DNA from: an uncultured Christensenella sp.
GTDB lineage: Bacteria; Bacillota; Clostridia; Christensenellales; Pumilibacteraceae
Length of the DNA: 64,000 nucleotides
Reading direction: 5' to 3'
Assembly: GCA_910577945.1 (NCBI GenBank)
Contig: CAJTNI010000005.1
Span: 1 to 64,000 of the forward strand
Shown here: in pieces, positions 14,902 to 64,000 of the stretch
How the letters are laid out: each line of letters starts with the position of its first letter
Position numbering within the stretch: the first letter of the stretch is position 1
Notes under the pieces: generated by a model
What the model was told of the DNA's origin: nothing
Database searches by the model: none
Seen by the model: only the letters and a program-made list of their open reading frames with translations
Made by a program: the position numbers and the translations under genes

Positions 14902-15389
14902 AAAAAGAATTAAAAGTTGTGCCGTCTATGTTTTGGTTAATCGGCTCAATTGTTCTAATTATAAGTTTGTATTCAATCTTTATATTTTCGTATACATATC
15001 CGCCTGCCCGTCCCGATGAAATCTTTGACCATATATTATTGATATTTTGTACGGGCGTATTACCGACAGTGATATTTGTTACGGCAATACCGCGTGGTAT
15101 ATTTTCGGTAGTTACGATAAGCGAGCGCGGGGTAAGGCGTACGCTGTTTATGGGACGATTCAAGCTTGAAATGAGTTGGGAGGAAATGGCAGAGATGCGG
15201 TATTATCCTCGGCTGCTGCCGTTTGTATTCTTTTCCAAAACCTGCACATTGGACGGTATGTATTACGACAAAATAATAAAAAGGCGGGACGTTATACAGG
15301 TAACGCTGTCAAAGAAAGTATTGCAAGCGATACGGCAGAATACCAAAAAGGAAATAATAAACCTGCCCGAAAGCTATAACGAGCAATAA
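14898..15389 (+). CDS. Putative immunity protein (small 3-TM membrane protein) for the RHS toxin tip
   Basis: Immediately downstream of the RHS tip and overlapping its stop (TGA/ATG). Hydrophobic N-terminus. GC about 40%. Confidence 0.5.
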   Translation: MKKELKVVPSMFWLIGSIVLIISLYSIFIFSYTYPPARPDEIFDHILLIFCTGVLPTVIFVTAIPRGIFSVVTISERGVRRTLFMGRFKLEMSWEEMAEMRYYPRLLPFVFFSKTCTLDGMYYDKIIKRRDVIQVTLSKKVLQAIRQNTKKEIINLPESYNEQ

Positions 15390-15664
15390 AAGACACAAAG
15401 AGCTCTGCACAGTAATGCGTCGGGCTCTTTGCGTATGTCAAAGCTGATATTATACAAATGGTTAAATCACAGGTCTCAAAGTACTGAAATTGGAAAATGT
15501 AGTTTTTAACCGCTAAATTAATAGGAAAAGTGTGTTGGTATTCTAAAAAGTCTGTTATCTACGATTATATTTTCTGCGGAAAATTTATAATTAGTGTTTT
15601 GTTGATAGGCGTTGTGACTATTTGCTACAACTAAAAACAGTCGACACTTTTTGAATACTTTATT

Positions 15665-15710
15665 ATGCAATATTGCATTTATTGACATTTTATTTAAATT
15701 ATGCTAAAAT
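15665..15710 (+). promoter_or_regulatory. Promoter of SIR2-HerA operon with upstream perfect palindrome
   Basis: ATGCAATATTGCAT is a 14-bp perfect palindrome (15665-15678) abutting TTGACA-17-TAAAAT (15682-15710). RBS aaaggag precedes ATG 15770. Confidence 0.5.
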
Positions 15711-15769
15711 ATTAATGTCGCAAATAATTTTTTAATTGGATAGTCATTTCAATTACAAAGGAGATTCTG

Positions 15770-16768
15770 ATGAGAATTTATAACATAGATGAACAAAGGC
15801 AAGATGTGAAATCGTATTTGATTAAATGTTTATCGTCTAACAATATAAGTTTTTTGCTAGGGGCCGGATTTAGTACGCCATTTTTAAGGGTTCTAGGAGG
15901 CTTTGAAGAACGATTAACGGTTGCAATTGAATTAGGAGATGTAAAACAAATAGTGTTATTGGAAAAGGAGTTTTTTAATAATAGTATTTTACCGATTCTT
16001 AATCAAAAAAAATTAGACACTAATATGAAATATCGTGATAGTTTTTTAAATTCTATAAAGAACATTTTAGAAAAACGTCATAGTTCGGTTTTGCATAAAA
16101 TGTTTAATATTTTTACCACGAATTATGATGTGCTTATAGAACAATCTTTGGAACGTAATGCAATTGAATATTCTGATGGATTTTCTGGGCGACTTAATCC
16201 ATTGTATTCAACAACGAATTTTGGAAGAGTTATAAAAAAGACAAGTGCAATAGCTCACAAATCAACAGAAATAGTAACTGCAAATTTGCTAAAACTACAT
16301 GGCTCATTGAATTGGACACAAACAGATGCTGGCATTGCTTTTGAGAATTGTAACCAAAAGATTCAACGTGTAAAAAAGTGCTTACAAAATGACGATGAAT
16401 TTATGTGCACTTATGAAAAAGAGTTCTTAATTATCAACCCTAATAAGGAAAAATTTAACACAACTGTTTTAAATGCGAATTATTATGATCAATTAAGAAT
16501 TTTTGGAAATGAGCTCGAACAAAGGAATGCTCTTTTGTTAGTTTATGGATTTTCGTTTAATGATGAGCACATACGAACAATAGTAGAAAGAGCTTTAATT
16601 AATCCAACATTAACAGTAGTTATATTTGCATTTAGAAAATGGGATGAAGACGCATATAAAGAAAAATTTGACAAATATCACAATGTTGTTGTATTACGTA
16701 ATAGCGGCGAATTCAATATTGAAAGCGTATCGCGGTTTTTTAAGGAGATTGATAATGATATTGAGTGA
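15770..16768 (+). CDS. SIR2-like (SIR2_2/ThsA-type) NAD-dependent domain protein, defense-associated
   Basis: FLLGAGFS (GAGxS), FTTNYDVLIE (TTNYD), KLHGS (catalytic His), LLVYGFSFNDEH. The order and spacing match ThsA-type SIR2 domains. GC about 33%. Confidence 0.8.
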   Translation: MRIYNIDEQRQDVKSYLIKCLSSNNISFLLGAGFSTPFLRVLGGFEERLTVAIELGDVKQIVLLEKEFFNNSILPILNQKKLDTNMKYRDSFLNSIKNILEKRHSSVLHKMFNIFTTNYDVLIEQSLERNAIEYSDGFSGRLNPLYSTTNFGRVIKKTSAIAHKSTEIVTANLLKLHGSLNWTQTDAGIAFENCNQKIQRVKKCLQNDDEFMCTYEKEFLIINPNKEKFNTTVLNANYYDQLRIFGNELEQRNALLLVYGFSFNDEHIRTIVERALINPTLTVVIFAFRKWDEDAYKEKFDKYHNVVVLRNSGEFNIESVSRFFKEIDNDIE

Positions 16769-18524
16769 AGTTTTGAAAATAGGTGAAGTAAGAGAAGTAT
16801 ATGGACATAAAATCAAAGTTGGAATTTATAGCGAAAAAAATGTCGAATACTTAAATTATGACGGAATACCTATTAAAAATGTTGGAATAGGTAGTTTTAT
16901 CATTATCAGAAAAGGATTTTTAAATATAATAGGGAAGGTAGATGGAGAGTTTATAACTGCTACATCTTTAGAAAGTGGCTATGCGGAAAAAGGGCGTGGT
17001 ATAGCAAGAACATTAGATGTGTCTGTTTTAGGACATTTAGAAAACGATCAATTTGTATTTGGTGTTATTGAGCTTCCATTAATAGGTAACTTTGTATACA
17101 TTATAGATGAGAGCCTACAAAAGAATATTTTAGACCATCATTCGCAGTTTGCATTAAATTTAGGTACTTTGATAGAGTATGATAATTATCCATTTAAATT
17201 AGATTTGCAAGAATTGATATGCAGTCATATCGGAATATTTGGTAATACCGGTAGTGGAAAATCAAATACTCTAGCAAAGATATATACTGAACTATTTGAA
17301 AATTATTCTAGCAATCAACAGTTTAAAAAGAATTCAGCCTTTGTTTTTTTTGACTTAAATGGGGAATATAGAAATTCGTTTCCTAATGGTCATTATTATG
17401 AATTGAATTCAATTGAAAATGAAAAATATCCATTAAATGAGCGGTATTTAACAGATATTGAATTTTGGTCGGTTGTTTTACAGGCTTCGGAAAAAACACA
17501 AAAACCGTTCATAAATGAATGTATAAAAAATTATAAAAAATGTAAGCAATCATCAAATTATTTCACGACTCAAAAATTAAGCGAACTTGTTTTTTATAGT
17601 CAAAAGAACTATGGGGATATTAGGGCATTTATAATTCACATATTTACATGCTTAGAACTTGAAGATGAGATCATATCATTTGATGACAATGTAAGCATTG
17701 AGTATAAAAAACTTATAAGCAATACGCGTGGACAATTAGATTATTTGGCGACCTATAATGAATTGTTTGGTGACATGGATGACAAAGTTATTTCTGTAAG
17801 TCATCTAGATGATATCCAAATTTTTTCTTTAATTGTTTATTACACTTATTGTAAAGAATTAAATAAAGGAAAGATTTCGACTCAAAATATTATTCAATTA
17901 TTTAATAGGATGGATAAAATATTATCGGAATTGGGAAATATATTCGAATTCAAGGGTGATTGTCCAAATGAGCATGTTGTTATTATATCATTATTTAATT
18001 TAAATGCAGAATTGAAAAAGTTAGTGACTTATATAATATGTAGAGATAAATATGAGAGTCATAAAAGACATCGTGGAAATGAGCGATTGCAGTCATCCCT
18101 TCATCTAATTATTGAAGAAGCACATAATATCTTATCGTATGAATCCGCGCGCGAGAGTGAGGAGTGGAAGAATACTCGATTAGAAACATTTGAAGAAATT
18201 ATTAAAGAAGGAAGAAAATTCGGAGTTTTTTTGACTATTGCCAGCCAAAGGCCGGCGGATATTTCGGAAACAATTATCTCACAGTTACATAACTTTTTCG
18301 TTCATCGTTTAGTGAATGCTGAAGATTTAAAGCGGATTTATAAGTCTGTTGCATTTTCTGATTCTGTTTCTAATAATATGATTCCAATTTTACCAGCTGG
18401 TGGTTGTTTATTTTCAGGCATTGCGGCTAATTTCCCATTATTAGCAAAAATTGATTGTTTAGAGCAATCTATCGCGCCTAACAGTTCTAACGTTAATTTA
18501 ATAGATATTTGGGGATTAAAATAA
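16755..18524 (+). CDS. HerA/FtsK-like ATPase (DUF87), partner of SIR2
   Basis: Walker A IGIFGNTGSGKSNT, Walker B LIIEEAHNIL, HerA-like FGVFLTIASQRPADI. RBS aaggag lies 7 nt upstream of ATG 16755. It overlaps the SIR2 stop codon (translational coupling). Confidence 0.8.
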   Translation: MILSEVLKIGEVREVYGHKIKVGIYSEKNVEYLNYDGIPIKNVGIGSFIIIRKGFLNIIGKVDGEFITATSLESGYAEKGRGIARTLDVSVLGHLENDQFVFGVIELPLIGNFVYIIDESLQKNILDHHSQFALNLGTLIEYDNYPFKLDLQELICSHIGIFGNTGSGKSNTLAKIYTELFENYSSNQQFKKNSAFVFFDLNGEYRNSFPNGHYYELNSIENEKYPLNERYLTDIEFWSVVLQASEKTQKPFINECIKNYKKCKQSSNYFTTQKLSELVFYSQKNYGDIRAFIIHIFTCLELEDEIISFDDNVSIEYKKLISNTRGQLDYLATYNELFGDMDDKVISVSHLDDIQIFSLIVYYTYCKELNKGKISTQNIIQLFNRMDKILSELGNIFEFKGDCPNEHVVIISLFNLNAELKKLVTYIICRDKYESHKRHRGNERLQSSLHLIIEEAHNILSYESARESEEWKNTRLETFEEIIKEGRKFGVFLTIASQRPADISETIISQLHNFFVHRLVNAEDLKRIYKSVAFSDSVSNNMIPILPAGGCLFSGIAANFPLLAKIDCLEQSIAPNSSNVNLIDIWGLK

Positions 18525-18593
18525 ATTTAATATGGATTTTAACGCAAAAGAATTTATATCACAAAATGGGGGTTGTTCACGGTAAAACGTAAA

Positions 18594-19090
18594 ATGCGCA
18601 TTCTTTTTTCACCGACACTGGTTATTGGTTCGTTAATTGGTTTGTTTTCGTTAGTCGGCATTTATTTACAGTCGTATATGAACCATGTCGAATAGGATTT
18701 AAAGAACATATTGTTATATTTATTATTTGGACATTATGTTGCGTAGGATTAAGTATAGCCGGTGTCGTAACGGGAGCGCGAAAGGTATTTTGCATAATAA
18801 CGATAGATGAGACGGGAATATCTCGGTCGTTTTTAGGTGTGTTTTGCAAGCTGCACATGTCATGGGACAATATAGCGGAGATTTGTTACTTTACAGCGCT
18901 AGCTGAATTTTTGGTATTTTCGAAAAATAAAAAAGTGTCAACAATGACGTATAATAAAATGAGAATGGAGAAAGATGCTATTGAGATGACGATAAGCAGG
19001 CGTAGATACAGAGTAATTAAGCAATATTTACAGCAGCCGATAGTGGGCATGCCCGAAAAAGTCAAAGAACGTTTGGAGCGCGAAAAGTAA
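18594..19090 (+). pseudogene. Frameshifted paralog of the RHS immunity gene
   Basis: Frame 1 gives MRILFSPTLVIGSLIGLFSLVGIYLQSY..*, which aligns with MKKELKVVPSMFWLIGSIVLIISLYSIFIFSY. A second frame continues ...GISRSFLGVFCKLHMSWDNIAEICYF..., which aligns with ...GVRRTLFMGRFKLEMSWEEMAEMRYY... The single frame break is near 18685. Confidence 0.55.
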
Positions 19091-19160
19091 AATAAATGAA
19101 AAATCAAACGACAGTGAAATAATAATTACCAAAAGTTGTTAATCGGCACTTAACCGAGAT

Positions 19161-19192
19161 AGCCCGTATCAATAACGATTCGGGCTTTTTCG
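19161..19192 (+). terminator. Rho-independent terminator
   Basis: agcccg-tatcaataacgatt-cgggct followed by ttttc. Confidence 0.55.
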
Positions 19193-19305
19193 TGCGAAAA
19201 AAGTCGTTCTAAGCGCTTATATAAAAAATTTCTAAAAATATATACTCATTGTAAGTCAATATCCAACAAAAGCGACCGATAGTTCTATATACTTACCGTA
19301 GGCAT

Positions 19306-19755
19306 ATGGAAAATGACGTAGTTAATGGATTTAAAACAACGCTCGCTGAGTTGATGTCGGAAAACGGTCATAGCGCGACCAGCTTGGGGCGCGCTATCGA
19401 CGTGAATATGTTTGTCGTGCGCAAATGGTTGATGCGTGCAAAAGACGTCAAACTGAAATCGCTTATAAAAATAGTAAATTATTTCGGTTGCTCGTTGGAA
19501 TATTTATGCGGTAAGACGGATGAAATTATTACGTACAAGCCGCAGCCGTTGCCGCCTTTTCGCGATTGGCTGAAAACGGTTTTACATAATTGCAATAAAT
19601 CGTCTTACAAGCTGATAAACGACACCAAGATTTCTTCGTCGCAGTACAACAGCTGGTTACACGGCGGAATGCCGATGCTGACTACGCTCGAAACAGTGGC
19701 GGAGTATTTGGACGTCACTCTCGATTATTTGGTGGGGCGTCATGCCGATAAATAG
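19306..19755 (+). CDS. XRE-family transcriptional regulator with two tandem HTH domains
   Basis: Two Cro/C1-type HTH repeats: LAELMSENGHSATSLGRAIDV... and LKTVLHNCNKSSYKLINDTKIS...LDYLVGR. GC about 45%. Confidence 0.65.
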   Translation: MENDVVNGFKTTLAELMSENGHSATSLGRAIDVNMFVVRKWLMRAKDVKLKSLIKIVNYFGCSLEYLCGKTDEIITYKPQPLPPFRDWLKTVLHNCNKSSYKLINDTKISSSQYNSWLHGGMPMLTTLETVAEYLDVTLDYLVGRHADK

Positions 19756-50739: not shown

Positions 50740-52275
50740 ATGAAAAAGGCGATTGCTGTGTTGTTGTCGGCGGTAATGGCGCTGTCGACGGCGGCTGCGC
50801 TCGGCGCGTGCGCGGGTACGAGCGGTAAGGACGGTAAGGACGGAATAAACGGCACTAACGGAGTTAACGGAGCGGACGGAATGAACGGTACGGACGGCAA
50901 GGACGGAGCGGACGGAATAGACGGGGTCGACGGCAAGTCGGCATACGAGCTGTTTTGCGAGGCGCACCCCGATTATACGGGCGACGAGGCGCAATGGCTC
51001 AAAGATTATGCGAGCGGCAAGCTCGCCGATTCCAAGTATTACGGTATCGTGTCGTTCGGCAGAGATTTCAACGGCACGGTTACGGCGGGCACGGCGACCT
51101 CGGACGGGTCGACGCTGTCGCTCGACAGCTGCGTAATCAAGCTTAACGAGGCGGTCGTGCTGCCCACTGCGGAGAATGCGGAGTGGGAGATAAGCATCGG
51201 CGGCGTGCTCGCCAACGGCGGGGGCAGCGCGGAGCTTTTGGCGAGCCTCGATAAATCCACCGTCGGGAGAATTTATTTCGGCGTGTACGCGGACAAAAAC
51301 CTCGCTTACCTCGGCGCGAATATAGGCGGAATTTACTTTAATTATTGCTGGAACGTGAGCGGCGACAAAATCAAATCGGCGCACGAATACACGTTGCGGT
51401 ATAAGGACGGCGTGTACGGGCTGTCGGTGGACGGCGGCAAGTTCGACAGGTTTTCCACGCTCAACAACAATCAGTCGAACAGCGTAAATATCTCCGACGC
51501 GGTCGTCGCGAGCCGAGACTTTAACGACAAGGTACGCGCGATAACGGGGCAGGATTATTTCGAGTTTACGAGTATCGGCGCGGACACGCACAAGTGCTCG
51601 TGCAAGCTGAATTACATAGACGCGAAAACCTCGTCGATTTACACGTACGAGAACGCGTCCAAGCACCCGCTCTACGGCAAGACCGTTTACCATTTGGGTT
51701 CGTCCATATCGTACGGTTATTCTAACAACGGCGTATCGTTTGCCGAGCAAATCGCGTCGCTTACGGGCAGCAAATACGTCAAGCAGACGGTGAGCGGCAC
51801 GACGCTTTCCACCGTTTATGCCGATTCGTACGTCGAGCGCTGGGCAAACTTTACGTTCGACGACGCGCCCGAGTTTTTGGTTTTGCAGTTAAGCACAAAC
51901 GACTTTACGCGCGGCGGCATCGACTTGGGCTCGGTCACGACGGCGCAGTCGGGGTTCGACACCAAAACCGCAACGGGCGCGATTGAGCACATTATCGCCG
52001 AGACCAAAAAGAAATCGCCCGACACGCAAGTGGTAATTTACACCTGCGCGGTCAAATCGGGTTGGGGCGCGAGACAGCAGTACGCGGGATTTATAAACAC
52101 CAATCTGCGCATGCTGCGCGAAAAGTGGGGCGTGACGGTAGTCGATTTGTTCAACGCTCAAACGGTGAATACCACGGCGTGGATGAGCGACGACATTCAC
52201 CCCAACGGCGCGCAGTACGCAAACCTTTTTACCGTACGCATGATAAACGCCATGACCGAGGCGTGCAAAAAATAA
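50740..52275 (+). CDS. Lipoprotein with collagen-like G-X-Y repeats and SGNH/GDSL hydrolase domain
   Basis: Lipobox LGAC. 14 consecutive GXY triplets (GKDGKDGINGTNGVNGADGMNGTDGKDGADGIDGVDGKS). SGNH blocks GSSISYG, LSTNDF and DDIHPN. Confidence 0.6.
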   Translation: MKKAIAVLLSAVMALSTAAALGACAGTSGKDGKDGINGTNGVNGADGMNGTDGKDGADGIDGVDGKSAYELFCEAHPDYTGDEAQWLKDYASGKLADSKYYGIVSFGRDFNGTVTAGTATSDGSTLSLDSCVIKLNEAVVLPTAENAEWEISIGGVLANGGGSAELLASLDKSTVGRIYFGVYADKNLAYLGANIGGIYFNYCWNVSGDKIKSAHEYTLRYKDGVYGLSVDGGKFDRFSTLNNNQSNSVNISDAVVASRDFNDKVRAITGQDYFEFTSIGADTHKCSCKLNYIDAKTSSIYTYENASKHPLYGKTVYHLGSSISYGYSNNGVSFAEQIASLTGSKYVKQTVSGTTLSTVYADSYVERWANFTFDDAPEFLVLQLSTNDFTRGGIDLGSVTTAQSGFDTKTATGAIEHIIAETKKKSPDTQVVIYTCAVKSGWGARQQYAGFINTNLRMLREKWGVTVVDLFNAQTVNTTAWMSDDIHPNGAQYANLFTVRMINAMTEACKK

Positions 52276-52294: not shown

Positions 52295-54808
52295 ATGAAA
52301 GAATTTATAACGGGCAAGATTCGGATACAGCTTTTGAGCCGCGATATAATTCGCCTCGAATTGCGCGGTAAGGACGGATTTTGCGACGACGACACATATT
52401 TCGTGCCGCACCGCGATTTTGCGGGGTGCGACGGCGACGCGCGCGTCGCGGACGGCATGCTCGTTGTCGCCGTGGGCGAGCTTAGTATCGCCGTGCCCGA
52501 AAACGCGCAATCGCTCAAAGGCGCGCGGCTTACCCGCGGCGACGACGCTTGGTCGTACAGGCGCAAGCGCAACGTCGGCGAGCTGCCGCTGCCGTCGAAA
52601 ACGCCGTTCGTGTTCGAGGTGACGGACTGCCCGCGAATAACGCTGCCCGACGGCGGATATCGACGCGGCGCGGAATACAAAATCGACGAGCGCGCGAACG
52701 ACGTGTATTTGCTCGTTTGCGACAGAGACTGCAAAAAGTTGCGCCGCTTATACGTGGAGCTTACGGGCAGACCCGAGCTTGTGCGGCTCGCCACGCTCGG
52801 GCTGTGGAATTCTAGATATTTCGCGCACAGCGACGCGTCGGCGCGCGAAATGATAGACGAGTACGCGCGGCGCGACGTGCCGCTCGACAACATGGTGCTC
52901 GACACCGATTGGCGCAAGGCGTCCGACCGCGGCATAGGCTACGAGGTAGACGACGCGCTGTTTCCCGATATGCGCGCGTTTTTCGACTACGCGCACGCGC
53001 ACGGCGTGGAGATTATGTTCAACGACCACCCCGAGCCTGTGGACGGCGCGCGTTCGGCGCTGGATGGGCGGGAGATAGAGTACCGCGCCGATAATCTGAT
53101 TGCGCATTTGAAAAACGGGCTGGACTATTGGTGGTACGACAGGAATTGGCATACCAAGCTAATCAGCCCGTCGCCCGCGGTCAATCCCGAAAGCATAGGC
53201 ATGTATATTTTTCACGACGTCACGAAGCAGGCGTTCGAGGCTCTTGCGGACGGCAAACCGCCGCGCCGACCCGTTATCATGGCTAACGTCGATAACGTAG
53301 CCAACGGCAACTACATGGGCGTAAACGACACCGCCACGCATAGATATTCGGTGCAGTGGACGGGCGACGTCGGTTCGGACGGCGCGACGCTTGCCTCCGA
53401 GATAAAAAATCTGGCGCTCGGGCAAAACAGCTGTATTACGTATATCAATTCCGACTGCGGCGGACATACGGGCAATCCGACAAAGCGCGAATACGTGCGG
53501 TGGATGCAGTTCGGCGCGTTCTCGCCGATATTCAGACCGCACTGCTCAAACTGCGTGGAGCGCTTCCGCGAGCCGTGGGCGTACGACGACGAAACGCTCG
53601 ATATAACGCGCGAGTACGTAAAAATGCGGTACAGGCTGTTGCCGTTGCTGTATAAGAGCGCGTACGAGAGCTACGCTTGCGGCGCGCCGCTTTTCGCGCC
53701 GCTCAATTACGCGTATGCGGACGACAAGCGCGCCAAAAACGTTTTCGACGAGTACATGCTAGGTAACGCCGTGCTTGTCGCGCCGTTGTGCGGCGTAGAG
53801 CCCAAAAAGCTGACGGCGGCTAACTATGCCGCGCCCGTTTCCGCCGTGTATTACGGCGGCATCGAATGCGCGGGCGCGCCGCTGTGGCGCACCGAGTACG
53901 GAACGCTCGATTTGTATTGGCACGGCGATTCGCCGCACGAGACCGTGCCGCCCTATTATTTTTCGGCGGTTTTCCAAACGGAGCTGATATTCGACAAGGA
54001 CGTCGAGCTTATCGTAGAGTCGGACGACGGCGTAACGGTGTACGTCGACGGCGAAATGACCTTGGAGGATAAGAATTTCCACGGCGCGGCAAAGATGAGC
54101 GCGGGCATGCTTAAAGGCGGCGTGCCGCACAAAATCAAAATAAATTATTTTCAGGGCGAGGGCGAGGCGTCGATTGCATTGTATTGCAACGTGGCGGACG
54201 CAAAGCGCAGCCTTGACGCGCGCAGCATATACCTGCCGCAGGGCGAGTGGCTGGACCCGTTCGGCGGTGAGATGTACGACGGGCGCAGGGCGCATTTCGC
54301 GTCGTACCCGCTCGGCGCGCTGCCGCTGTTCGTAAAGCGCGGCAGCGTAATACCGCTCGTCGATTGCAAGCAAAATACAAAGCTTATAGATTGGGGCAAC
54401 GTGACGCTCGATTACTACCCGTCCAAAACCGAAAAGTATTCCGACTACATTTACGAGGACGACGGCGAAACCGTCGCGTACAAATCGGGCGCGTACAGGA
54501 TAAGCCCGTTTACCGCAGAGTACGACGCGGCGCGCAGAACGTACCGACTGACGCTGTCGCGCAGCACGGGCGGGTACGCGGGCGTGCAAAAGCGGCGCGG
54601 CGCGGTCAAGTTCCATTTGCTGGACGGCGTGGGCGAGATAGCGCGCGTCACCGTAAACGGCGCGCCCGTCATGCTGCAAGCGATTAAGCGCGATATCGGC
54701 GCGTATCCGTTTTCGACGGGCGGCGGCGCGCGCGACGCGGACGTGATAATCGTCGGTTTCGAGCACGACGTAAACGGCGAAACGGTAATCGAGCTCGCGG
54801 AAAAATAA
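52295..54808 (+). CDS. GH31-like glycoside hydrolase with PA14 domain (cytoplasmic paralog)
   Basis: GLDYWWYDRNW aligns to the GH31 nucleophile block G.D..W.DMNE. RYSVQWTGDV is the acid/base block. A PA14-like insert is present. There is no signal peptide. Confidence 0.6.
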   Translation: MKEFITGKIRIQLLSRDIIRLELRGKDGFCDDDTYFVPHRDFAGCDGDARVADGMLVVAVGELSIAVPENAQSLKGARLTRGDDAWSYRRKRNVGELPLPSKTPFVFEVTDCPRITLPDGGYRRGAEYKIDERANDVYLLVCDRDCKKLRRLYVELTGRPELVRLATLGLWNSRYFAHSDASAREMIDEYARRDVPLDNMVLDTDWRKASDRGIGYEVDDALFPDMRAFFDYAHAHGVEIMFNDHPEPVDGARSALDGREIEYRADNLIAHLKNGLDYWWYDRNWHTKLISPSPAVNPESIGMYIFHDVTKQAFEALADGKPPRRPVIMANVDNVANGNYMGVNDTATHRYSVQWTGDVGSDGATLASEIKNLALGQNSCITYINSDCGGHTGNPTKREYVRWMQFGAFSPIFRPHCSNCVERFREPWAYDDETLDITREYVKMRYRLLPLLYKSAYESYACGAPLFAPLNYAYADDKRAKNVFDEYMLGNAVLVAPLCGVEPKKLTAANYAAPVSAVYYGGIECAGAPLWRTEYGTLDLYWHGDSPHETVPPYYFSAVFQTELIFDKDVELIVESDDGVTVYVDGEMTLEDKNFHGAAKMSAGMLKGGVPHKIKINYFQGEGEASIALYCNVADAKRSLDARSIYLPQGEWLDPFGGEMYDGRRAHFASYPLGALPLFVKRGSVIPLVDCKQNTKLIDWGNVTLDYYPSKTEKYSDYIYEDDGETVAYKSGAYRISPFTAEYDAARRTYRLTLSRSTGGYAGVQKRRGAVKFHLLDGVGEIARVTVNGAPVMLQAIKRDIGAYPFSTGGGARDADVIIVGFEHDVNGETVIELAEK

Positions 54809-54873: not shown

Positions 54874-55755
54874 TCACGGGGGGGGGGTAGAATGCACCCT
54901 TTTTCTATATAATTCGGGCGATTCGCCCGATTTTTTCTTGAACAGATAGGAAAAGTAATTTTGCTCGCAAAACCCCAAAAGCTCGGCGATTTCGCCTATG
55001 CGCAGCGACGACGTGACGAGAATGTTTTTCGCTATGTCCATTTTGCTGTCGATATAATAGGCGTACGGCGTGGTGCGATAGTATTTTTTGAACTCGTTTA
55101 TAACCTGCGCCTTGGAAACGAGGAGCTGCTCCGCAATCGCCTCCACGGTGATATTGCCGTAGATATTGTCGTCCAAAAGCGCTTTCGTCGCTTTGGCAAT
55201 GTTGGACGCATGTATGACCTTGTGCTCGTTTTGCGCCAAGCGGTTGATTATCTTGAATATAATCTCCGCCGCCACGTAGCACACCTCCTCGTTGAACGTG
55301 GTGGTCTTGGCGAGCTGGAACAGCTCGAAGAACAGCGCTTTGCAGTTGGAGTTTTTAAAAACTATTCTGTCCGACAGCCCGTACGCGCGCAGTATTTCGC
55401 TTATTATGCTGCTGTGTATGTTAATCCATATCTTTTCGTACGGGTCGGTCTTGTCCGACCAATACTTATGCCGCGTGCCCTCGGATAGGATATACAAATC
55501 GTCCTGCTTGACGGTAAAGGTGCGGTTGTCGCAAACGATATAGCCTACGCCGCTAAGCACGTACTCGAATATAAAATAATCGCTGTGCTTGCGCTCTATA
55601 AAGTAGTCGGGGTTGGGGTGGGAAATGCCGATGCACTCGACGAAAATCGGCATGCTCATGTCGCCCACGAAATGGGTCAATTCCTCGTTTGACACGTCGC
55701 CGTAGCTTATATTATGGAACGGGTCAATCAGTTGTTTGCGGGAATTGTTTTTCAT
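54874..55755 (-). CDS. AraC family regulator (cupin sensor plus AraC HTH)
   Basis: C-terminal HTH AIAEQLLVSKAQVINEFKK...IGEIAELLGFCEQNYFSYLFKK. Start ATG at 55755. The ORF track extends to 55923. Confidence 0.7.
   Translation of the reverse strand: MKNNSRKQLIDPFHNISYGDVSNEELTHFVGDMSMPIFVECIGISHPNPDYFIERKHSDYFIFEYVLSGVGYIVCDNRTFTVKQDDLYILSEGTRHKYWSDKTDPYEKIWINIHSSIISEILRAYGLSDRIVFKNSNCKALFFELFQLAKTTTFNEEVCYVAAEIIFKIINRLAQNEHKVIHASNIAKATKALLDDNIYGNITVEAIAEQLLVSKAQVINEFKKYYRTTPYAYYIDSKMDIAKNILVTSSLRIGEIAELLGFCEQNYFSYLFKKKSGESPELYRKRVHSTPPP
54878..54887. repeat. G10/C10 homopolymeric tract overlapping last codons of AraC gene
   Basis: gggggggggg on the plus strand encodes the terminal PPP of the minus-strand AraC ORF. 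Confidence 0.9.
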
Positions 55756-55913
55756 TTTCTCACTTTTTCGGATACGTAAAATTAAGAAATCGACTTTAAT
55801 TTTGCTTACATTTGCTTTAATTATCCTCATTCCGTTTGGGAACTTAAAACAATTATAATTGTATTGTAGTTTATTGTCAAGCAAAATAACCAATTCAATA
55901 TAGGAGAAAAAGG

Positions 55914-58900
55914 ATGTCGGCATTTAAGAGCAAAAAATTCAAAAAGATTTTGTCATTGCTTTTGGCGTCGGTTATGGCTGTGCCGTTCGGCGCTACCGTT
56001 CTTGCCGCTTGCGGCGACAAGAACAATCCTTCGGATGACCCGCCCGCAGATTGCACCGAGCACGTTGACGAGGACAAAAACGGCAAGTGCGACAACTGCG
56101 GCGAGGATATGCCCAAAGACCCCGATGAGCCCGACCCCGAAGAAAAGGAGCGGTATATCACGGTTGACAATATTCGCGTCGGGCTGCTGTCGGATACGGT
56201 GGTGCGCGTCGAGTACAAGGGCAAGTCGGGGTTCGAGGACCGCGACACCTTTTACGTGTCCAACCGCGACGCCAAGGAGGCGCCCGATTTCACCGAGACC
56301 ACGGTGGACGGCAACCGCGTAATCACCACGTCCAACTATAAAGTCTACGTTCCGCAAAACGCGACGAGCCTCGACGGCGTGCGCATTGTGTCCGCAGCCG
56401 ACGAGGAGCTGTGGCGGTATGCGGGCGAAACCACGTCCAACGTTTACATACCCAGCCCGTCCGACGCGCTCGACAGCTGGTATTTCAGCGACAGCCCGCG
56501 CATTGTTCCGTCCGAATACGGCTACGGAATAAGCGAGAGCTCCGACCCGCTCAACGGTTGGGATTTCGGCAACGACGCGCCCGACTGCTACGTGTTTTTG
56601 CCTAACGGCGATTACAAGCAGTTTTGCGACGATTACGTTACGTATACGGGCAGGAGCGAGATGATATCGCTGCAAATGCTCGGTTATTGGGATTCGCGCT
56701 GGTACGCTTACGACGAAAAGACGGCGATGCAGCAGATTAAGGACTACACCGACAGGGGTTACAGCATAGACATACTCGTCTTGGACAAGGATTGGCATGC
56801 GGATAACGGGCTCGACGGCGTAGGATATCAGATTAACACCGAGCTGTTCCCCAACATGGCGGAGTTTTTGGACGAGTGCCACGAGCTCGGCATAAATATC
56901 ATGTTCAACGACCATCCCGAGCCCGTCAAGGGCACGGGCAACCTGCTCGACGGCGAGGAGGTTGAGTACCGCAACAAGCAGCTCACCGCCATACTTTCGC
57001 TCGGTCTCGATTATTGGTGGTACGACAGAAACTGGTCGGTTTCGCTCAACCCGATTGACAAGGATATTTCCGTATTCGCGACGGGCATGTACGCGTTCCA
57101 ATTCGTCACCAACGAGCATTTGCAGTCCATAACAGACCTCGGCGAGTACGCCGACCGCGCGCTCATAATGGGCAACGTGGACGGATGCTTGCACGGGCGT
57201 TGGAACTACGCGTCCGATATTTCCGCGCATAAGTATTCCATTCAGTGGACGGGCGACATCAACACGGACACGACCGCGCTTGCGCAGGAAATTTACGCGT
57301 CGGTGTTCGGCGGCGCGGAGGTGGGTATTCCGTACATGTCCTCCGACCTCGGCGGACACACCGCGTCCGTTTCGGACGATATGTACATTCGCTGGTTGCA
57401 GTACGGCGCGCTGTCCACGATTTGCCGCGTGCACTGCACCAACGTGGAGCAAATAGGTCAGGACGGCCGCATGCCGTGGCTGTTCGGCGAAACTGCGGAG
57501 GACGTCGTTAAGGAATACGTCGGCATGCGCTATCGCTTGCTGCCGCTGTTCTACGCGCTTTCCCGTGAAAACTACGACAGCGGTTTGCCTATCATGCGCC
57601 GCACGGATATCGAATATCCGCAGTACAACGAGGCGTCGCGCAACGACCAATACATGCTCGGCAAGCACCTTTTGGTCGCGCCGTTCGACTCTGCGGAAAA
57701 GCTCGACGCCGTTCCCACGGAATGGCTGACCACCGTAGACGGCAATCATAACGGCTTGGACGCCACGTATTTCGAGGGTAAGTTCGGCACGGTGCGCTCC
57801 CGCAAAATCGACGCAAACGTTTATTTCAATTGGGAAAACGGCGGGCCGCAGGGCTTGGGCTCGGATAATTTCTCGGTGCGCTGGGAAGGCAAAGTCAAGA
57901 TAGGCGAAAAAGATTCGCGGCTGTGCTTCTTTGCCGACGACGGCGTAAGAGCCTGGGTGGACGGCAAGCTTGTAGCGGACGGCTACGGCGTTTACGACAA
58001 AATGCTGTACACCGATTACTATGCGGCGGGCAGCGAGCACACAATCAAAATAGATTATTACGAGGAGTACGGCGGCGCGCACGTGTACATGTATTACGGC
58101 GAGCGCGGCGAGGACGGCGCAATGATGCCCAACACGCGCACGGTGTTTATCCCCGACGGCACGTGGGTGGACGTTTGGTCGGGCACGCGCTATAACGGTC
58201 CGCAGACGATTACCGTATCGCACGGGCTTACCACTTCGCCCATATTCGTGCGCGAGGGCTCGGTATTCGCGCTCGCGGAAAACATGAAGAACACGTCCGA
58301 AAAGGATTGGAGCAACATGACGCTCGACGTGTACGCGGGCACGGAGGCTACGGACACGCTGCTGTACGAGGACGACGTCAAGACGCAGGCGTACAAGGAC
58401 GGCAAGTGCCGTAAAACGCTTATCACCAACGAGTACGCCGACGGCAAGTTCACCGTCAAGGTAAATCCCGCCGAGGGCGAGTTCACGGGCGACCGCGCGT
58501 TTACCGAACGGAATTGGACGGTGCGCATTCACGCCAAACCCGAGTGGGGCGCGATTTCGAGCATAAGAGTAAACGGCAAGAGCCTGTCCAGCGGCAGCAT
58601 TCGTTCGTTCAAAAAGAGCGCCGATTCCACGCCGTTCGCGCTTACGGGCGCGGCGCTCGACGGCGACGTCTATCAGTTCAATGTTACTGCCGACGTGTAC
58701 GAGCTCACCGAAATCGTGTTCACGTTCAAGAACGAAATCACCGAGGCGGAAAAGCCCGAATACGACGACAGCGAATCCGATTTGTCGGTAGAGCTGCAAG
58801 AGGCGGGCGACGAAATCAATCTTACGAGCGTAGGCGACGTGGATTGGGCGTATTTCGGCGTAGACAGCGTGGACGTGACCGCGCGCAAAAACACTGCGGA

Positions 58901-59900
58901 GCGCTATATCGGCGCTTTGGAGACCTATGCGACTTGCAGCCTGCTTTCGTACTCGACGCTGTACGCGTCCTGGACGGACGGCGCGGCGAATATGCCCGCG
59001 GCTAAGGCGGTCACGACGGGGCTTGTGTCCAAGAAGGATTTTGCGTTCACGTTCAAGGTGAACGATACCAAGCGCTATTACGTAATCAACCTCGGCGGCG
59101 AAAACTGCAAAGCCAAGCTCACGCTGCGCGACAGGGCGGGCAGAGCGCAAACAATCAATTTCGGCAATTTGTACGGCTCGTTCGCGTACCGCGCGGTTAT
59201 CGAGGCGCAGAGCGCGGCGGAGACCGAGTTTACCGCCACTTACGCGGTAGTGGTCAGCCGTCCGAACGGCACCGATACGCATTCCAGCGTATTCGTAAGC
59301 TCGGCATACGTTACGACGGAGCTTAAAGACGCGGTCAAGACGGACGTAACCAACGTGTCGGCTAAGATAGCGTTAAAGGACGCGCCCGCAACCGCCAATC
59401 TTTCGGAAACGAACGTAAGCGGCATGGCGGTGGTCGATTGGCGGCACTTCGGCATGACCGACACCGATATGTACATAGAAAAAACGGGCGGCGACGTAAT
59501 CGGCAAAACGCTGTTTTCCAGCCCTCAGCCCTTCTTCGACTACGCGACGAGCATCGGCTGGAACGACGGCGAGCAAATCGCAACCGAAACAGGTTCGATA
59601 AACGGCACGTGCACGTCGGGCGAGATTACGCTGTATCTTAACGTGTCTGCGGGCACGTCCAAGATTCTGCTTTACACGGGCACATGGCGCGCGACCAACA
59701 CGGTGCGCGTGTACAACAGCAAAAATCAGTTGATAGCGTCCGGTCAGTCGTTCAGCGCGGGCGAGCAATCCGCGCCGCGGCTTGCGGAAATCGACGTTAA
59801 CACCGAAATCGACACCACGATAATCGTCCGAATAGCTTGCACAAGCGGCAGCGGCAACGTTTCGCTCGCGGGCATGCAGGTGCTGGCGGCGGCAAAATAA
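55914..59900 (+). CDS. Secreted lipoprotein: GH31-like glycoside hydrolase plus PA14 plus two C-terminal uncharacterized ~190-aa domains
   Basis: Lipobox LAAC and an acidic linker. GLDYWWYDRNW and KYSIQWTGDI. PA14 (FSVRWEGKVKI...DDGVRAWVDGK). The two C-terminal repeats contain a (V/L)YTGxW motif. Confidence 0.6.
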   Translation: MSAFKSKKFKKILSLLLASVMAVPFGATVLAACGDKNNPSDDPPADCTEHVDEDKNGKCDNCGEDMPKDPDEPDPEEKERYITVDNIRVGLLSDTVVRVEYKGKSGFEDRDTFYVSNRDAKEAPDFTETTVDGNRVITTSNYKVYVPQNATSLDGVRIVSAADEELWRYAGETTSNVYIPSPSDALDSWYFSDSPRIVPSEYGYGISESSDPLNGWDFGNDAPDCYVFLPNGDYKQFCDDYVTYTGRSEMISLQMLGYWDSRWYAYDEKTAMQQIKDYTDRGYSIDILVLDKDWHADNGLDGVGYQINTELFPNMAEFLDECHELGINIMFNDHPEPVKGTGNLLDGEEVEYRNKQLTAILSLGLDYWWYDRNWSVSLNPIDKDISVFATGMYAFQFVTNEHLQSITDLGEYADRALIMGNVDGCLHGRWNYASDISAHKYSIQWTGDINTDTTALAQEIYASVFGGAEVGIPYMSSDLGGHTASVSDDMYIRWLQYGALSTICRVHCTNVEQIGQDGRMPWLFGETAEDVVKEYVGMRYRLLPLFYALSRENYDSGLPIMRRTDIEYPQYNEASRNDQYMLGKHLLVAPFDSAEKLDAVPTEWLTTVDGNHNGLDATYFEGKFGTVRSRKIDANVYFNWENGGPQGLGSDNFSVRWEGKVKIGEKDSRLCFFADDGVRAWVDGKLVADGYGVYDKMLYTDYYAAGSEHTIKIDYYEEYGGAHVYMYYGERGEDGAMMPNTRTVFIPDGTWVDVWSGTRYNGPQTITVSHGLTTSPIFVREGSVFALAENMKNTSEKDWSNMTLDVYAGTEATDTLLYEDDVKTQAYKDGKCRKTLITNEYADGKFTVKVNPAEGEFTGDRAFTERNWTVRIHAKPEWGAISSIRVNGKSLSSGSIRSFKKSADSTPFALTGAALDGDVYQFNVTADVYELTEIVFTFKNEITEAEKPEYDDSESDLSVELQEAGDEINLTSVGDVDWAYFGVDSVDVTARKNTAERYIGALETYATCSLLSYSTLYASWTDGAANMPAAKAVTTGLVSKKDFAFTFKVNDTKRYYVINLGGENCKAKLTLRDRAGRAQTINFGNLYGSFAYRAVIEAQSAAETEFTATYAVVVSRPNGTDTHSSVFVSSAYVTTELKDAVKTDVTNVSAKIALKDAPATANLSETNVSGMAVVDWRHFGMTDTDMYIEKTGGDVIGKTLFSSPQPFFDYATSIGWNDGEQIATETGSINGTCTSGEITLYLNVSAGTSKILLYTGTWRATNTVRVYNSKNQLIASGQSFSAGEQSAPRLAEIDVNTEIDTTIIVRIACTSGSGNVSLAGMQVLAAAK

Positions 59901-59924
59901 TCGTAACCGACGGTATGGGATACC

Positions 59925-62900
59925 GTGAAATATCAGGAGGAGAATATGAAAAAGACAAGGACACTTATCGTACTGCTTATAAGCATACTTACGGTCTGTC
60001 TTGCGCTCGCGGCATGCGGAAAACCCGACGCGCCCGCCGAGTATTCGCTCGACACGACCGAAGTGACGCTTATGGTGGGCGACACGCACCAAATCAAAGT
60101 TTCGTCCACGTCGGACGCGGAATTTACCGTCGCTTACGAGTCGGATACGCCCGACGCGGCGTCGGTTAGCGACGGCGGACTTGTAACCGCGGTCAAGCCC
60201 GGTACGGCAAAAATAAAAGCGACGGTGGACGGTAACGAGCTTGTGCTCAACGTAACCGTCGAGCATAAATACGCGCTCAATAAGACGACCGAGCAGCTGA
60301 GCGTGGGCGACACGTTGCAGCTTAACGTGATAACGACGCCCAACAAGAACGTGACGCCGACCTGGACGGTCGCGCCCGAGGGCGTTGTCACGGTTTCGGA
60401 AAGCGGGCTTGTTTCCGCCGTTGCGGAGGGCGACGCAACCGTCACGGCGACGGTGGACGGCAAAACGCTCGACTGCAAAATAACGGTCACAGAGGAATTG
60501 GTATTCTATACCTATACGCTCAATCACGTCTCCGCAAACCTGGAAAAGGGCAGCACGCTCGAATTGGTGCTCACCAGCGAGGATAGAGAGGAATTCGAGG
60601 TCGAGTGGGAATCGGCTGATACCGATATCGCGACGGTGGACGAAAACGGCGTGGTTACCGCGGTCAAAACGGGTAAAACCACAGTCGAGGCTAAGGTGGA
60701 CGGCGAGGTCGTAGGCGAATGCGCAATCACCGTATTCGAGTACGTTTACGAATATCCCGAGACCTTGTCGGTCGATTACGGCGACGAGGAAGCGGAGATT
60801 GAAGTTACCGTTACTCCGAGCAAAACGACCAACTACACGTACGAGCTCGACAAGGACGGCGTGATTACCGTCGATACCAACGGCAAGCTTACGACCGTAA
60901 GCGTCGGCACGGCTACCGTCACGATTAAGGACGGCGAAAAGGCAGTCGGCGCTTGCGTCGTCACGGTCAACGCCGTGGTCGAGTTTGACGAAAAACTCAA
61001 CATGCACGTCGGCGACGTACACGAGCTCGCAATTACGGAGCAGCCCGCGGGCAGCGTCGAGAAACTCACGTTCGCCGTAACGGACGGCGCGGACGTCGTG
61101 CAATTGGGCGAGGACGGCAAAACTCTTACCGCGCTCAAAAACGGCACTGCCACCGTCAAGGCGACCGCCGACGGCAAGGAAATGACCTGCACGGTCAACG
61201 TAAGCAATCTCTACATAACCGAGTTCAAAACCGAATTGCTGGAAATGGATAAGGAAAACCCTATCGATATCGGCGCGGGCGCGGAGTATTGGGAGCAGTA
61301 CATTGCAACCAACGAGATTAACCACAAGCGCTACGACACGAGCGCCGAGGACGTAATCGAGCGTACGCTCTCTCACGACGGCAAATTTTTGCCCGATTAC
61401 AAAGCGTGGCTCGCATGGAGCGGCGGCGCGAACGGCTCGAATTGCTCGTGCGGCAAATGCAATAAGGACACTCAGAACGGCGGCGACGGCGGCTGGACAG
61501 CCGACGGAACTAAGGCGTATTGTACAGACGTTCTCGGCAGCACGATAAGCCTTGACGTCAAGGTGTTCCCCGGACAGTCGACCGTTAAGGTTTACACGGG
61601 CGGATACAACCTCAAAGAAAACGTCACCGTCAAAATCGGCGACGACGTGCTCGGCACGGCGACGATAGACAACAAGGGCGCGCACAATTCCAACTCGGTC
61701 GTGTTGTCGGTAGACGTAAAAGAGCCGACGACGGTTACCGTCGTGTTGGAATTCGCCGACGATTACGGCGACACGGGACACTCGGTAATGTCGCTTGCGG
61801 GCGCAAGCGTCAGCGGCGATACGTATCGCCTCAAAAAATACGATACGCGTCTTGTGGTAGGTGATACCGAAGCGATTGTAGTCGTCAAAGGCGAAAACGG
61901 GTCTCCCGCCAATGTAAAGTATGAATCGGAAAATCCCGAAATCGCGACGGTAGACAGCGACGGCGTTGTGACGGCGATAGCTGACGGTAGCACTGTTGTG
62001 ACGGTTAATGCTGACGGGCGTATTCGTGAGTTTATCGTTAACGTCGGTTACGATTATACGCTTAACAGTAAGGATATCACGTTGATGTCGGGTCAAACGC
62101 ACCAAATTGTAGTTACCTCCAATCCCGAGGGTTCTACCGAATCCGTAATATACGACAGCAACGACGATAATGTTGCAACGGTTTCCGAATCGGGCTTGAT
62201 TACCGCCGTGGCAAACGGTACGGCTATAGTAACGGTTTCGATTGGCGACAAGGTTTACGAAATTTCAGTTAAAGTTGCGAACGCGGCGGTTACGGTTTCC
62301 AACAATCGTTTCGAGGGACAGTATATTGATTTGACTACGCCTGATACCGTATATTGGGAATATTATTTGTACAATGAAATAACTTCGCCTACGGGTAAAA
62401 CCGATTTAATCGATGGTAATATCGCAGGACATGCGGGCGAAGATAATGGCTACGGCGCGTTTATAAATTTCGTCGGCGGTAATCCTAAACAAAATTCTTA
62501 CGACGATGCGGCATATAAAAAATACAGTAAAGGCGCTACTTATGAATTTACCGTCAACGTGCCGCAAGGACACCACGAAATTCGCGTGTATACGGGCGCA
62601 TGGGAAAATACCGTTAATAAGACGTCGCTTTGGGACGGAAATACCGAAATTGCTTCCTGTACCATTCCCAAGACGGGCGGCGGCGTATCTATGCTCGTTA
62701 CGTTTGACGTGACCACTGCTCAAAGCGTTCCGCTTACGCTTAAAATCAACGCCGAAGAAGGTGATAATTGTCGATTGATGGCAATCGCCATAGTTGATAA
62801 TGATTTCGATTTCGAAGCGGCTACAACGACGGTATCCCTCAACCAAGAAAAAACCGTAGAAATGACGGGACACGACGTTAATTTGTCCGAAATCGGCGAT

Positions 62901-63425
62901 ATAGATTGGGTCAAGTTCAATGTCGAAAATGTTAACGGCTCGGCTACCGGTAACGTAGTTAAAAAATCTAATGCCAATTACTTGCCTTCGACAACGAGCA
63001 ATACGTGGAACGAGTGGAATTACAAAGCGAATATGACTTGGAACGACGGCGATTCTTCCGTTAACGCAGGAGATTGCAAGGACGGCGATTTGAGCGACGG
63101 CAAGCATAATAACTTTATCGCCAACATTTATTGCCTTAACACCACTGTAAAAGTTGACGAAAACGTTAAAACGATAACCGTTTATGCGACGGGTTGGAAA
63201 GCGTCTTATTCGATAATGATAACCGATTCCAATGGTAACGTTATAATGAATCAGGCGATTTGCGAAAGGCGCGGCGACGATAGTGTTGCGTACGCGATTA
63301 CGGTTAACGTTTCGGCAACGGCTGAGGATATTTTGACCGTCGGCATTGTGAGAACCAACAACGACGGAAACGTAGGTGTGGCAGCGGTTGCTCTCGGCGG
63401 CAACACGACACCCGTAGCGCCGTAA
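59925..63425 (+). CDS. Large surface lipoprotein with ~7 BIG2 Ig-like domains and three copies of the same uncharacterized ~190-aa domain
   Basis: Lipobox LAAC. Repeated ~75-aa BIG2 units (e.g. ...GLVTAVKPGTAKIKATVDGNELVLNVTV). The three ~190-aa domains carry VKVYTGGYN, IRVYTGAWEN and TVYATGWKAS motifs. Confidence 0.6.
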   Translation: MKYQEENMKKTRTLIVLLISILTVCLALAACGKPDAPAEYSLDTTEVTLMVGDTHQIKVSSTSDAEFTVAYESDTPDAASVSDGGLVTAVKPGTAKIKATVDGNELVLNVTVEHKYALNKTTEQLSVGDTLQLNVITTPNKNVTPTWTVAPEGVVTVSESGLVSAVAEGDATVTATVDGKTLDCKITVTEELVFYTYTLNHVSANLEKGSTLELVLTSEDREEFEVEWESADTDIATVDENGVVTAVKTGKTTVEAKVDGEVVGECAITVFEYVYEYPETLSVDYGDEEAEIEVTVTPSKTTNYTYELDKDGVITVDTNGKLTTVSVGTATVTIKDGEKAVGACVVTVNAVVEFDEKLNMHVGDVHELAITEQPAGSVEKLTFAVTDGADVVQLGEDGKTLTALKNGTATVKATADGKEMTCTVNVSNLYITEFKTELLEMDKENPIDIGAGAEYWEQYIATNEINHKRYDTSAEDVIERTLSHDGKFLPDYKAWLAWSGGANGSNCSCGKCNKDTQNGGDGGWTADGTKAYCTDVLGSTISLDVKVFPGQSTVKVYTGGYNLKENVTVKIGDDVLGTATIDNKGAHNSNSVVLSVDVKEPTTVTVVLEFADDYGDTGHSVMSLAGASVSGDTYRLKKYDTRLVVGDTEAIVVVKGENGSPANVKYESENPEIATVDSDGVVTAIADGSTVVTVNADGRIREFIVNVGYDYTLNSKDITLMSGQTHQIVVTSNPEGSTESVIYDSNDDNVATVSESGLITAVANGTAIVTVSIGDKVYEISVKVANAAVTVSNNRFEGQYIDLTTPDTVYWEYYLYNEITSPTGKTDLIDGNIAGHAGEDNGYGAFINFVGGNPKQNSYDDAAYKKYSKGATYEFTVNVPQGHHEIRVYTGAWENTVNKTSLWDGNTEIASCTIPKTGGGVSMLVTFDVTTAQSVPLTLKINAEEGDNCRLMAIAIVDNDFDFEAATTTVSLNQEKTVEMTGHDVNLSEIGDIDWVKFNVENVNGSATGNVVKKSNANYLPSTTSNTWNEWNYKANMTWNDGDSSVNAGDCKDGDLSDGKHNNFIANIYCLNTTVKVDENVKTITVYATGWKASYSIMITDSNGNVIMNQAICERRGDDSVAYAITVNVSATAEDILTVGIVRTNNDGNVGVAAVALGGNTTPVAP

Positions 63426-63536
63426 GGAAAAGACTTAAAATAACGCGCTTGCTACGCATTCCCTCGCAATTTGCGGGGGAATGCGAGCGGCTGTATATCG
63501 ACAGATACAAATCAAGCGCATTACTTGGAGGAATAA

Positions 63537-64000
63537 TGAAAAAACGATTATTGACGTTGTTTGTTGCCGTAATGCTCGCTTTGACGGCGGGCGCGCTGTT
63601 TGCGTGCAGCGGCGGCAAGCACAAGATAACGGTGAATAATTCGGGCAACGGCTCGGTCGAGCTTAGCGTGAGCTCCGCCGCCGCCGGCGACAGCGTTTCC
63701 GTCAAGCTCGTGCCCGACAGCGGGTACGTGGCGGAAAGCGCGACGGTAAACGACGCGGCGCAGGAGATTGCGGACAATGCGTTTACCTTTACGATGCCCG
63801 ATTCGGACGTTACGGTTTCGGTCGTTTTCGCAAAGCAAAAGTACGGCTTGAATTATATTCGGGCGGTCGGCGGCTCGGTCACTGCCGCTGCCGATGCGTA
63901 CGAGAGCGGCGCGTCGGTGACGCTCGTCGTTAAGCCCGATTACGGCTATACGCTTTCGAGCCTTTCCGTGGACGGCAGCGCGGTCGAGGTCGCGTCGGAC
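63537..64000 (+). CDS. Lipoprotein (partial, continues beyond window)
   Basis: MKKRLLTLFVAVMLALTAGALFAC has the lipobox. RBS ggagg. Ig-like beta-rich repeats follow. Confidence 0.4.

Follow-up and report, generated by a model that had tools for sequence, protein, structure and literature searches.

Bacteroidota encode, beside their polysaccharide-utilisation enzymes, non-catalytic lipoproteins of the SusE/SusF type, which combine an immunoglobulin (Ig)-like N-terminal part with tandem domains resembling carbohydrate-binding modules (CBMs). Such modules can also be part of an enzyme, as in the GH31 α-1,6-glucosyltransferase of Paenibacillus sp. 598K (PDB 5x7o), whose C-terminal β-sandwich modules of CBM type belong to established families, which we take to be CBM35 and CBM61. 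Here we describe a 64,000-nucleotide stretch from an uncultured Christensenella sp. (contig CAJTNI010000005.1, positions 1 to 64,000; hereafter the window), in which two adjacent, co-directional genes carry five copies of a previously unannotated domain. One encodes a GH31 lipoprotein (gene A) and the other a lipoprotein built largely of Ig-like Big_2 repeats and the new domain (gene B). In the reading that we favour, the domain belongs to an undescribed family of non-catalytic modules that bind glycans, and both lipoproteins, anchored in the membrane, would present several copies of it; the gene B product probably captures, and the gene A product trims, the same polymer before it is imported by an ATP-binding cassette (ABC) transporter.

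The gene B product would be a functional analogue of the SusE/SusF-type surface glycan-binding lipoproteins, from which it differs in its monoderm envelope, its cytoplasmic-membrane anchor, its domain families and the absence of a SusC/D partner. Import here would depend on a substrate-binding protein (SBP) and its ABC transporter, unlike in the SusE/SusF systems. At the level of the single domain, the predicted fold is a β-jelly-roll, as in CBM6 (1uy1, 1o8p), CBM35 (2w3j, 2w46), CBM36 (1ux7), CBM22 (4xun, 1h6x) and CBM4 (3k4z, 1k42). However, no sequence relationship to those families was detected with Pfam or with profiles against the PDB; the new domain is 40–60 residues longer, and its signature, (D/Y)W...WxDG...YxGxW...GN, is its own.

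Five copies of one domain in two genes

Gene A (55914..59900, + strand) is an open reading frame (ORF) for a lipoprotein of 1328 aa, with the lipobox VLAAC read from the translation at its N-terminus. The GH31 catalytic core with its PA14 insert is followed by the GH31 C-terminal domains, by DUF5110 and then by copies A1 (58782..59300, + strand; gene A aa ~958–1129) and A2 (59379..59888, + strand; aa ~1154–1325). Gene B (59946..63425, + strand) encodes 1159 aa from the ATG at 59946; its ORF is open from a GTG at 59925 (1166 aa), and the ATG is the likely start because the 99%-identical protein P0003 has 1159 aa. Behind its lipobox, ALAAC, likewise read from the translation, lies a first array of four Big_2 repeats (60027..61208, + strand, boundaries approximate), a presumed stalk. 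Then come copy B1 (61227..61817, + strand), a second block of two Big_2-like repeats (61818..62282, + strand; Pfam HL_N-beta and Big-like, aa 663–701 and 743–786) and copies B2 (62289..62798, + strand) and B3 (62841..63401, + strand). Pfam recognises seven Big_2 or Big-like stretches in gene B, all of them outside B1–B3. It finds nothing in gene A aa ~940–1328 or in gene B aa ~430–630 and ~790–1166, and NCBIfam adds nothing for the unannotated stretches of either gene.

Compared directly by BLASTP, the five segments are only 21–32% identical in pairs over collinear stretches. Therefore, we collected relatives for profile comparison: two orthologs of the gene A C-terminus, 16 full-length gene B orthologs, the four-copy protein P0019 (1219 aa) and P0062, which has 459 aa and consists of two copies and little else. 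In a non-circular comparison, a separate ortholog alignment was made for each copy and the resulting profiles were compared by hhalign. All five copies are connected, with E-values of 5e-16 for A2–B3, 7e-14 for B1–B2, 7e-10 for B2–B3, 4e-9 for A2–B2, 1.5e-8 for A1–B3 and 8e-6 for A1–A2. The link between A2 and B3 is also seen with single-sequence phmmer, in which both match the same copies of P0019 and P0062, at E 1e-13 to 1e-20 (7.5e-19 for A2 against one P0062 copy). A hidden Markov model (HMM) that was started from A2 and iterated to convergence takes in 63 domain copies from 22 proteins, with five matches in the two window proteins, and when all six frames of the window are scanned there are again exactly five copies, all within genes A and B. 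The five segments are homologous; they are copies of one domain of roughly 170–195 residues.

The preliminary description of this DNA had proposed one repeated non-catalytic domain common to both genes, with two copies in the GH31 lipoprotein and three in its Big_2 neighbour, and had named significant alignment of the segments as the check to be made. The ortholog profiles provide that alignment, the converged HMM and the six-frame scan confirm the count, and the boundaries first given lie no more than about 50 nt from those of the profile-defined copies. A simple recent duplication between genes A and B was considered and rejected: each copy has its own orthologs, at 42–55% protein identity, versus ~20% identity of the copies to each other.

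Across 422 copies, the family signature in B3 numbering is L16, (D/Y)23-W24, I49, W68-x-D70-G71, Y116-x-G118-x-W120 and G177-N178. W24 is conserved in 95% of them, W68 in 83% (97% aromatic), Y116 in 76% (95% aromatic), G71 in 88% and N178 in 70%, and the W120 position is aromatic in 84%. The N-terminal (D/Y)W block and the closing hydrophobic β-strand described earlier are both borne out by the larger set. The central YTG(G/A/T)(W/Y) block, which had been ascribed to every copy, stands in four of the five; A1 has N and E at the two aromatic positions of the block. We regard W24, W68, Y116, W120, D70 and N178 as a putative binding or Ca2+ site.

The copies fall into types according to the residue before W24. 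A2 (LLYTGTW) and B3 (VYATGW) are of the DW type, B1 and B2 (IRVYTGAW) of the YW type, and A1, which has neither the YxGxW nor the G-N motif, is the most diverged. Among adjacent tandem pairs, counted over B2–B3 and the family members P0124–P0267, 41 run YW then DW, four run DW then YW, and one is YW–YW, which suggests that the heterotypic YW–DW pair, as in B2–B3, works as a unit. Copy B1 alone contains the Cys/Gly-rich insertion NCSCGKCNKDTQNGGDGGW, at about gene B aa 497–525, with a conservation of at least 90% across 17 orthologs. The insertion combines three Cys, arranged as CxCxxC, with a Gly/Asp-rich loop; it may bind metal or form a disulfide loop, and would lie at the end of the sandwich where binding is presumed to occur. 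The loop-rich N-terminal half of the B1 orthologs is conserved at 0.74, versus 0.59 for the C-terminal strands.

Known families, predicted fold and family members

The domain matches no curated family. For the five window copies Pfam returns no match at E <10 except weak ones to B3, which reaches two galactose-binding-like or lectin-like models at E 0.004, with 17 bits against a cut-off of 27. No Pfam family recurs consistently among ten distant copies scanned singly or in a set of 59 diverse copies, and 58 of the 59 have no match above noise. The remaining one matches DUF4082 (PF13313), an uncharacterised bacterial β-sandwich domain without known function, at E 2.9e-6, the single match to a curated family better than 1e-4. 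No window copy and none of the other 58 diverse members matches DUF4082, and a remote relationship to it is possible. CBM_6 and CBM_35 are absent at E <10 from the scans of the five window copies and the ten diverse members, and at E <0.1 from those of the 59. P0062, which is useful here as a protein of two copies only, has no precomputed Pfam match, recent Pfam versions included. The names given to family members at source are 'DUF5110 domain-containing', 'Ig-like domain-containing' or 'hypothetical'.

Searches of solved structures agree. With phmmer, none of the five segments matches any PDB sequence, and profiles built from 54 close and from 59 diverse copies find nothing below E 0.05 among 177,635 PDB sequences, with no CBM6, CBM35 or CBM36 chain at E <10. 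An Ig, SLH or PA14 identity of the copies was rejected on Pfam scans of the proteins and of the isolated copies. The copies are 170–195 aa jelly-rolls, as opposed to the ~80 aa of an Ig fold or Big_2 repeat. The preliminary description had seen no obvious match to common CBM, SLH or Ig families, and had called for an HMM to be built and compared with Pfam; the Pfam, NCBIfam and PDB searches uphold it, and no curated family matches the five copies.

The structure prediction and structural search that it had likewise called for point to a fold. The AlphaFold2 model of B3, made from the 54-copy alignment, is all-β with about 14 strands, a predicted local distance difference test (pLDDT) score of 95 and a predicted template-modelling (pTM) score of 0.92; that of A1 is also all-β (pLDDT 84, pTM 0.83). 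In a Foldseek search with the B3 model, the CBM6 entries 1uy1, 1uy2 and 1o8p are near the top, at E about 5e-4 and template-modelling (TM) scores of 0.35–0.5, and most of the top structural neighbours are CBMs (CBM6, CBM35, CBM36, CBM22 and CBM4). These matches are to be read at fold level, with identities of ≤16% and only 100–130 of about 180 residues superposing, at 2.6–3.4 Å. On the models, the domain is predicted with high confidence to have the β-jelly-roll, or galactose-binding-like, fold class that is used by many CBMs, CBM6, CBM35 and CBM36 among them; we assign it to no single family. That it is a discrete domain, as in the CAZy definition of a CBM, is indicated by the single-copy models and by P0225, a protein of 191 aa with one copy.

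The family extends well beyond the two genes in which it was noticed. Word-index searches miss such a diverged family, with only two relatives found for the GH31 C-terminal pair and one for the 54-copy alignment, and an exhaustive HMMER search was therefore needed. Among 1.84 billion cluster representatives, 1413 carry the domain at E ≤1e-3, 415 at ≤1e-10 and 92 at ≤1e-30. Copies were counted in 145 proteins (144 of the 150 listed matches, and P0123): there are one to eight per protein, nearly always two to six. The protein with eight is P0155, a 6070-aa 'putative Ig domain-containing protein' from a Pseudomonadota metagenome-assembled genome (MAG), in which the copies are evenly spaced; the domain reaches beyond Firmicutes.

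Pfam scans of 60 full-length members reveal fusions to several enzymes. GH31 is a partner in 21 of 32 members sampled, often with PA14, and GH92, an MGH1-like/trehalase-like glycoside hydrolase, sulfatases, GDSL esterases and 3-keto-disaccharide hydrolase also occur. Further partners are dockerin (five), SLH, Ig-like, cadherin-like, fn3, FIVAR and Flg_new repeats. Enzymes, dockerin and SLH are the usual company of CBMs. The domain is thus found as a contiguous sequence within carbohydrate-active enzymes, another element of the CAZy definition, with GH31 in the window and with several enzymes elsewhere.

The GH31 enzyme and its locus

Pfam identifies in gene A the GH31 TIM barrel, the PA14 insert, the GH31 C-terminal domain and DUF5110, with Glyco_hydro_31_2nd at E 4e-37. 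The TIM barrel and the conserved nucleophile and acid/base Asp residues place the protein in GH31. The closest solved relative of the catalytic core is LlGH31_u1 (7wj9, E 3e-45), which is closer than 5x7o. LlGH31_u1 is a nigerose-specific α-1,3-glucosidase with the catalytic residues D341 and D394 (PMC9061262). Gene A D371 (in WWYD) and D448 (in WTGD) align with these two residues, and the enzyme is probably active, since both catalytic Asp are in place. Its similarity to LlGH31_u1 is too distant for the specificity to be transferred.

Upstream, gene A is flanked by a divergent gene for an AraC-family regulator (54874..55923, − strand; Pfam AraC_binding and HTH_18), which likely regulates the locus; in the related locus L081, too, AraC genes adjoin the GH31 gene. 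Beyond it lies a second GH31 gene with a PA14 insert (52295..54808, + strand; 837 aa), which has neither a signal peptide nor copies of the new domain, and upstream of that a GDSL esterase with an N-terminal collagen-like repeat (50740–52272). The next gene after gene B is that of a Flg_new_2 repeat protein, of which the window holds the start (63536..64000, + strand). On a near-identical contig (locus L084, 6546–16435), a 972-aa Flg_new_2 protein is followed by a 601-aa SBP, two ABC permeases and two GH43 genes; from this gene order, the locus continues past the window. A related locus carries GH115_C, SASA and GDSL genes. The locus is a Gram-positive polysaccharide-utilisation locus.

The GH43, GH115 and esterase neighbours point to plant heteroglycans, that is, heteroxylan or arabinogalactan-type substrates. 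Reading the ligand of the domain from the GH31 enzyme was rejected: an α-1,3-glucosidase as the closest solved enzyme conflicts with such neighbours. Therefore, we assign no ligand.

The domain alignment contains no conserved stretch of 7–10 columns, and the whole GH31 protein was used to collect related loci. The 80 best relatives of gene A on GTDB contigs, with one genome per species, all come from uncultured gut or rumen MAGs labelled Christensenella, Christensenellaceae, Clostridia, Acutalibacteraceae, Ruminococcaceae or Lachnospiraceae. The GH31 genes in these loci have 0, 1, 2, 3 and 5 copies of the domain in 5, 28, 21, 9 and 1 cases, respectively, and such modular gain and loss of copies is typical of CBMs. 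In 18 of the 80 loci, the GH31 gene is followed directly by a Big_2 protein, which has 0–6 copies. Locus L081 (7460–11377) shows a variant of the pair in which two separate proteins take the place of the gene B product, one a Big_2 protein that has two copies and the other P0062; P0019 looks like the unsplit form of the two.

Elsewhere in the window, positions 13486–19755 form a low-GC island, with a GC content of 0.29–0.40 versus about 0.55 in the rest. Its ORFs encode an RHS repeat (13486–14898), SIR2_2 (15770–16765), a HerA/DUF87 ATPase (16626–18521) and a helix-turn-helix protein (19306–19752). The island looks like a horizontally acquired SIR2–HerA anti-phage defence pair beside an RHS-repeat ORF.

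Proposed glycan binding and its alternatives

The preliminary description had read the domain as a candidate new CBM. That interpretation is now partly supported: fold and context agree with it, and from them we infer that the domain probably binds carbohydrate. The sequence of events that we propose begins with the N-terminal lipid anchors, which would tether both proteins to the cytoplasmic membrane of a monoderm gut Clostridia bacterium (Christensenellales-like), with the Big_2 Ig-like repeats as putative stalks that would keep the modules off the cell. Several modules would then bind the polysaccharide multivalently. The GH31 exo-α-glycosidase, which its two C-terminal copies would keep on that same polysaccharide, would trim α-linked sugars, and the ABC transporter encoded downstream would import the products.

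A number of observations weigh against this proposal. W24 and Y116 sit inside predicted strands, and the conserved aromatics may be part of the hydrophobic core instead of being exposed. Copy A1 departs from the signature at three positions (Y116 to N, W120 to E, and loss of the C-terminal G-N motif). This state of A1 is common to its orthologs in P0001 and P0002, and A1 is possibly a degenerate or re-specialised copy that has kept its fold, given the pLDDT of its model. Modules that do not bind free glycans are found among the structural neighbours at the same Z as the CBMs: reelin repeats, MAM domains, domains of phage tailspikes and depolymerases, and those with which the CDTb, iota and Vip (binary) toxins bind their receptors. 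Many members of the family resemble adhesins, since apart from the domain they contain only Ig, cadherin, He_PIG or FIVAR repeats and lack an enzyme. Finally, no homolog with a bound ligand is known, no description of the domain was found in the literature searched, and neither the PDB nor the searchable literature yielded a characterised homolog.

Several of these points would be expected if the domain were instead a structural, spacer or protein–protein interaction module of the adhesin kind, with a part in forming fibres at the surface or in binding proteins of the host or of bacteria. This is the strongest of the alternatives, though we think it rather unlikely. It accounts for the many long members in which the domain is accompanied only by Ig-like, cadherin-like, He_PIG, Big_9, FIVAR and RibLong repeats, and the reelin, MAM and toxin neighbours fit it as well. 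However, a module of this kind would not be expected to be fused repeatedly to unrelated glycan-active catalytic domains and to dockerins, as the new domain is with GH31, GH92, sulfatase and esterases. The copy number varies among orthologs as it does in CBMs, the conserved Trp/Tyr signature and the loops exceed what a spacer needs, and in gene B the role of spacer is already filled by the Big_2 repeats.

A second alternative would preserve the function and lower the novelty: the domain may bind carbohydrate as a very diverged branch of an existing family, for example DUF4082 or a CAZy CBM without a Pfam model or structure. We consider this improbable, more so than an adhesin role. The DUF4082 match of the one diverse member speaks for it, as do sub-threshold matches to GBD_Hemicentin (0.004), Lectin_like (0.004), the PL4 'CBM-like' model (0.001) and F5_F8_type_C (0.06). 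These are outweighed by the Pfam result for all five window copies and the other 58 diverse members, by the two family profiles that find nothing below E 0.05 in the PDB, by P0062, which has no precomputed Pfam match, and by the generic source names of the family members.

A cell-wall anchor that binds the bacterium's own peptidoglycan or a secondary wall polymer, in keeping with the cell-surface-anchoring role once suggested for the domain, with the extracellular location of the proteins and with the SLH domains of a few family members, is very unlikely, because both window proteins already have lipoprotein anchors and members elsewhere have dockerin or SLH anchors of their own besides the domain, while up to 6–8 copies per protein and heterotypic tandem pairs would be unusual for wall anchors and Pfam detects no SLH, LysM, CW_binding or SH3b in either protein or in the isolated copies.

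Returning to the glycan-binding module that we prefer, a more far-reaching form of the proposal can be put forward tentatively, and we hold it with less confidence than the general one. The domain would found a new CBM family of Christensenellales-like and other gut and rumen Clostridia, and gene B would be the Gram-positive counterpart of the Bacteroidota surface glycan-binding proteins, with heterotypic tandem modules on Ig stalks catching the glycan that the neighbouring GH31 trims. The differences among the copies, from the Cys/Gly-rich loop of B1 and the division into YW and DW types to the degeneration of A1, might then reflect distinct specificities.

The advance is incremental: the family is new, its fold and functional class are well known, and no new principle is involved. 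The lack of a family annotation leaves blank about one quarter of gene A and one half of gene B, and a definition as a CBM family whose ligands are known would improve the annotation of carbohydrate-active enzymes. Knowledge of the ligand would also give a clue to the substrate of a GH31 clade that is little understood and is related to the nigerose-specific GH31_u1 enzymes. In the gut and rumen, the Christensenellales and their uncultured relatives among the Clostridia are abundant and associated with health, and their glycan capture is almost unstudied; the two lipoproteins would supply a testable model of how Gram-positive bacteria capture glycans at their surface.

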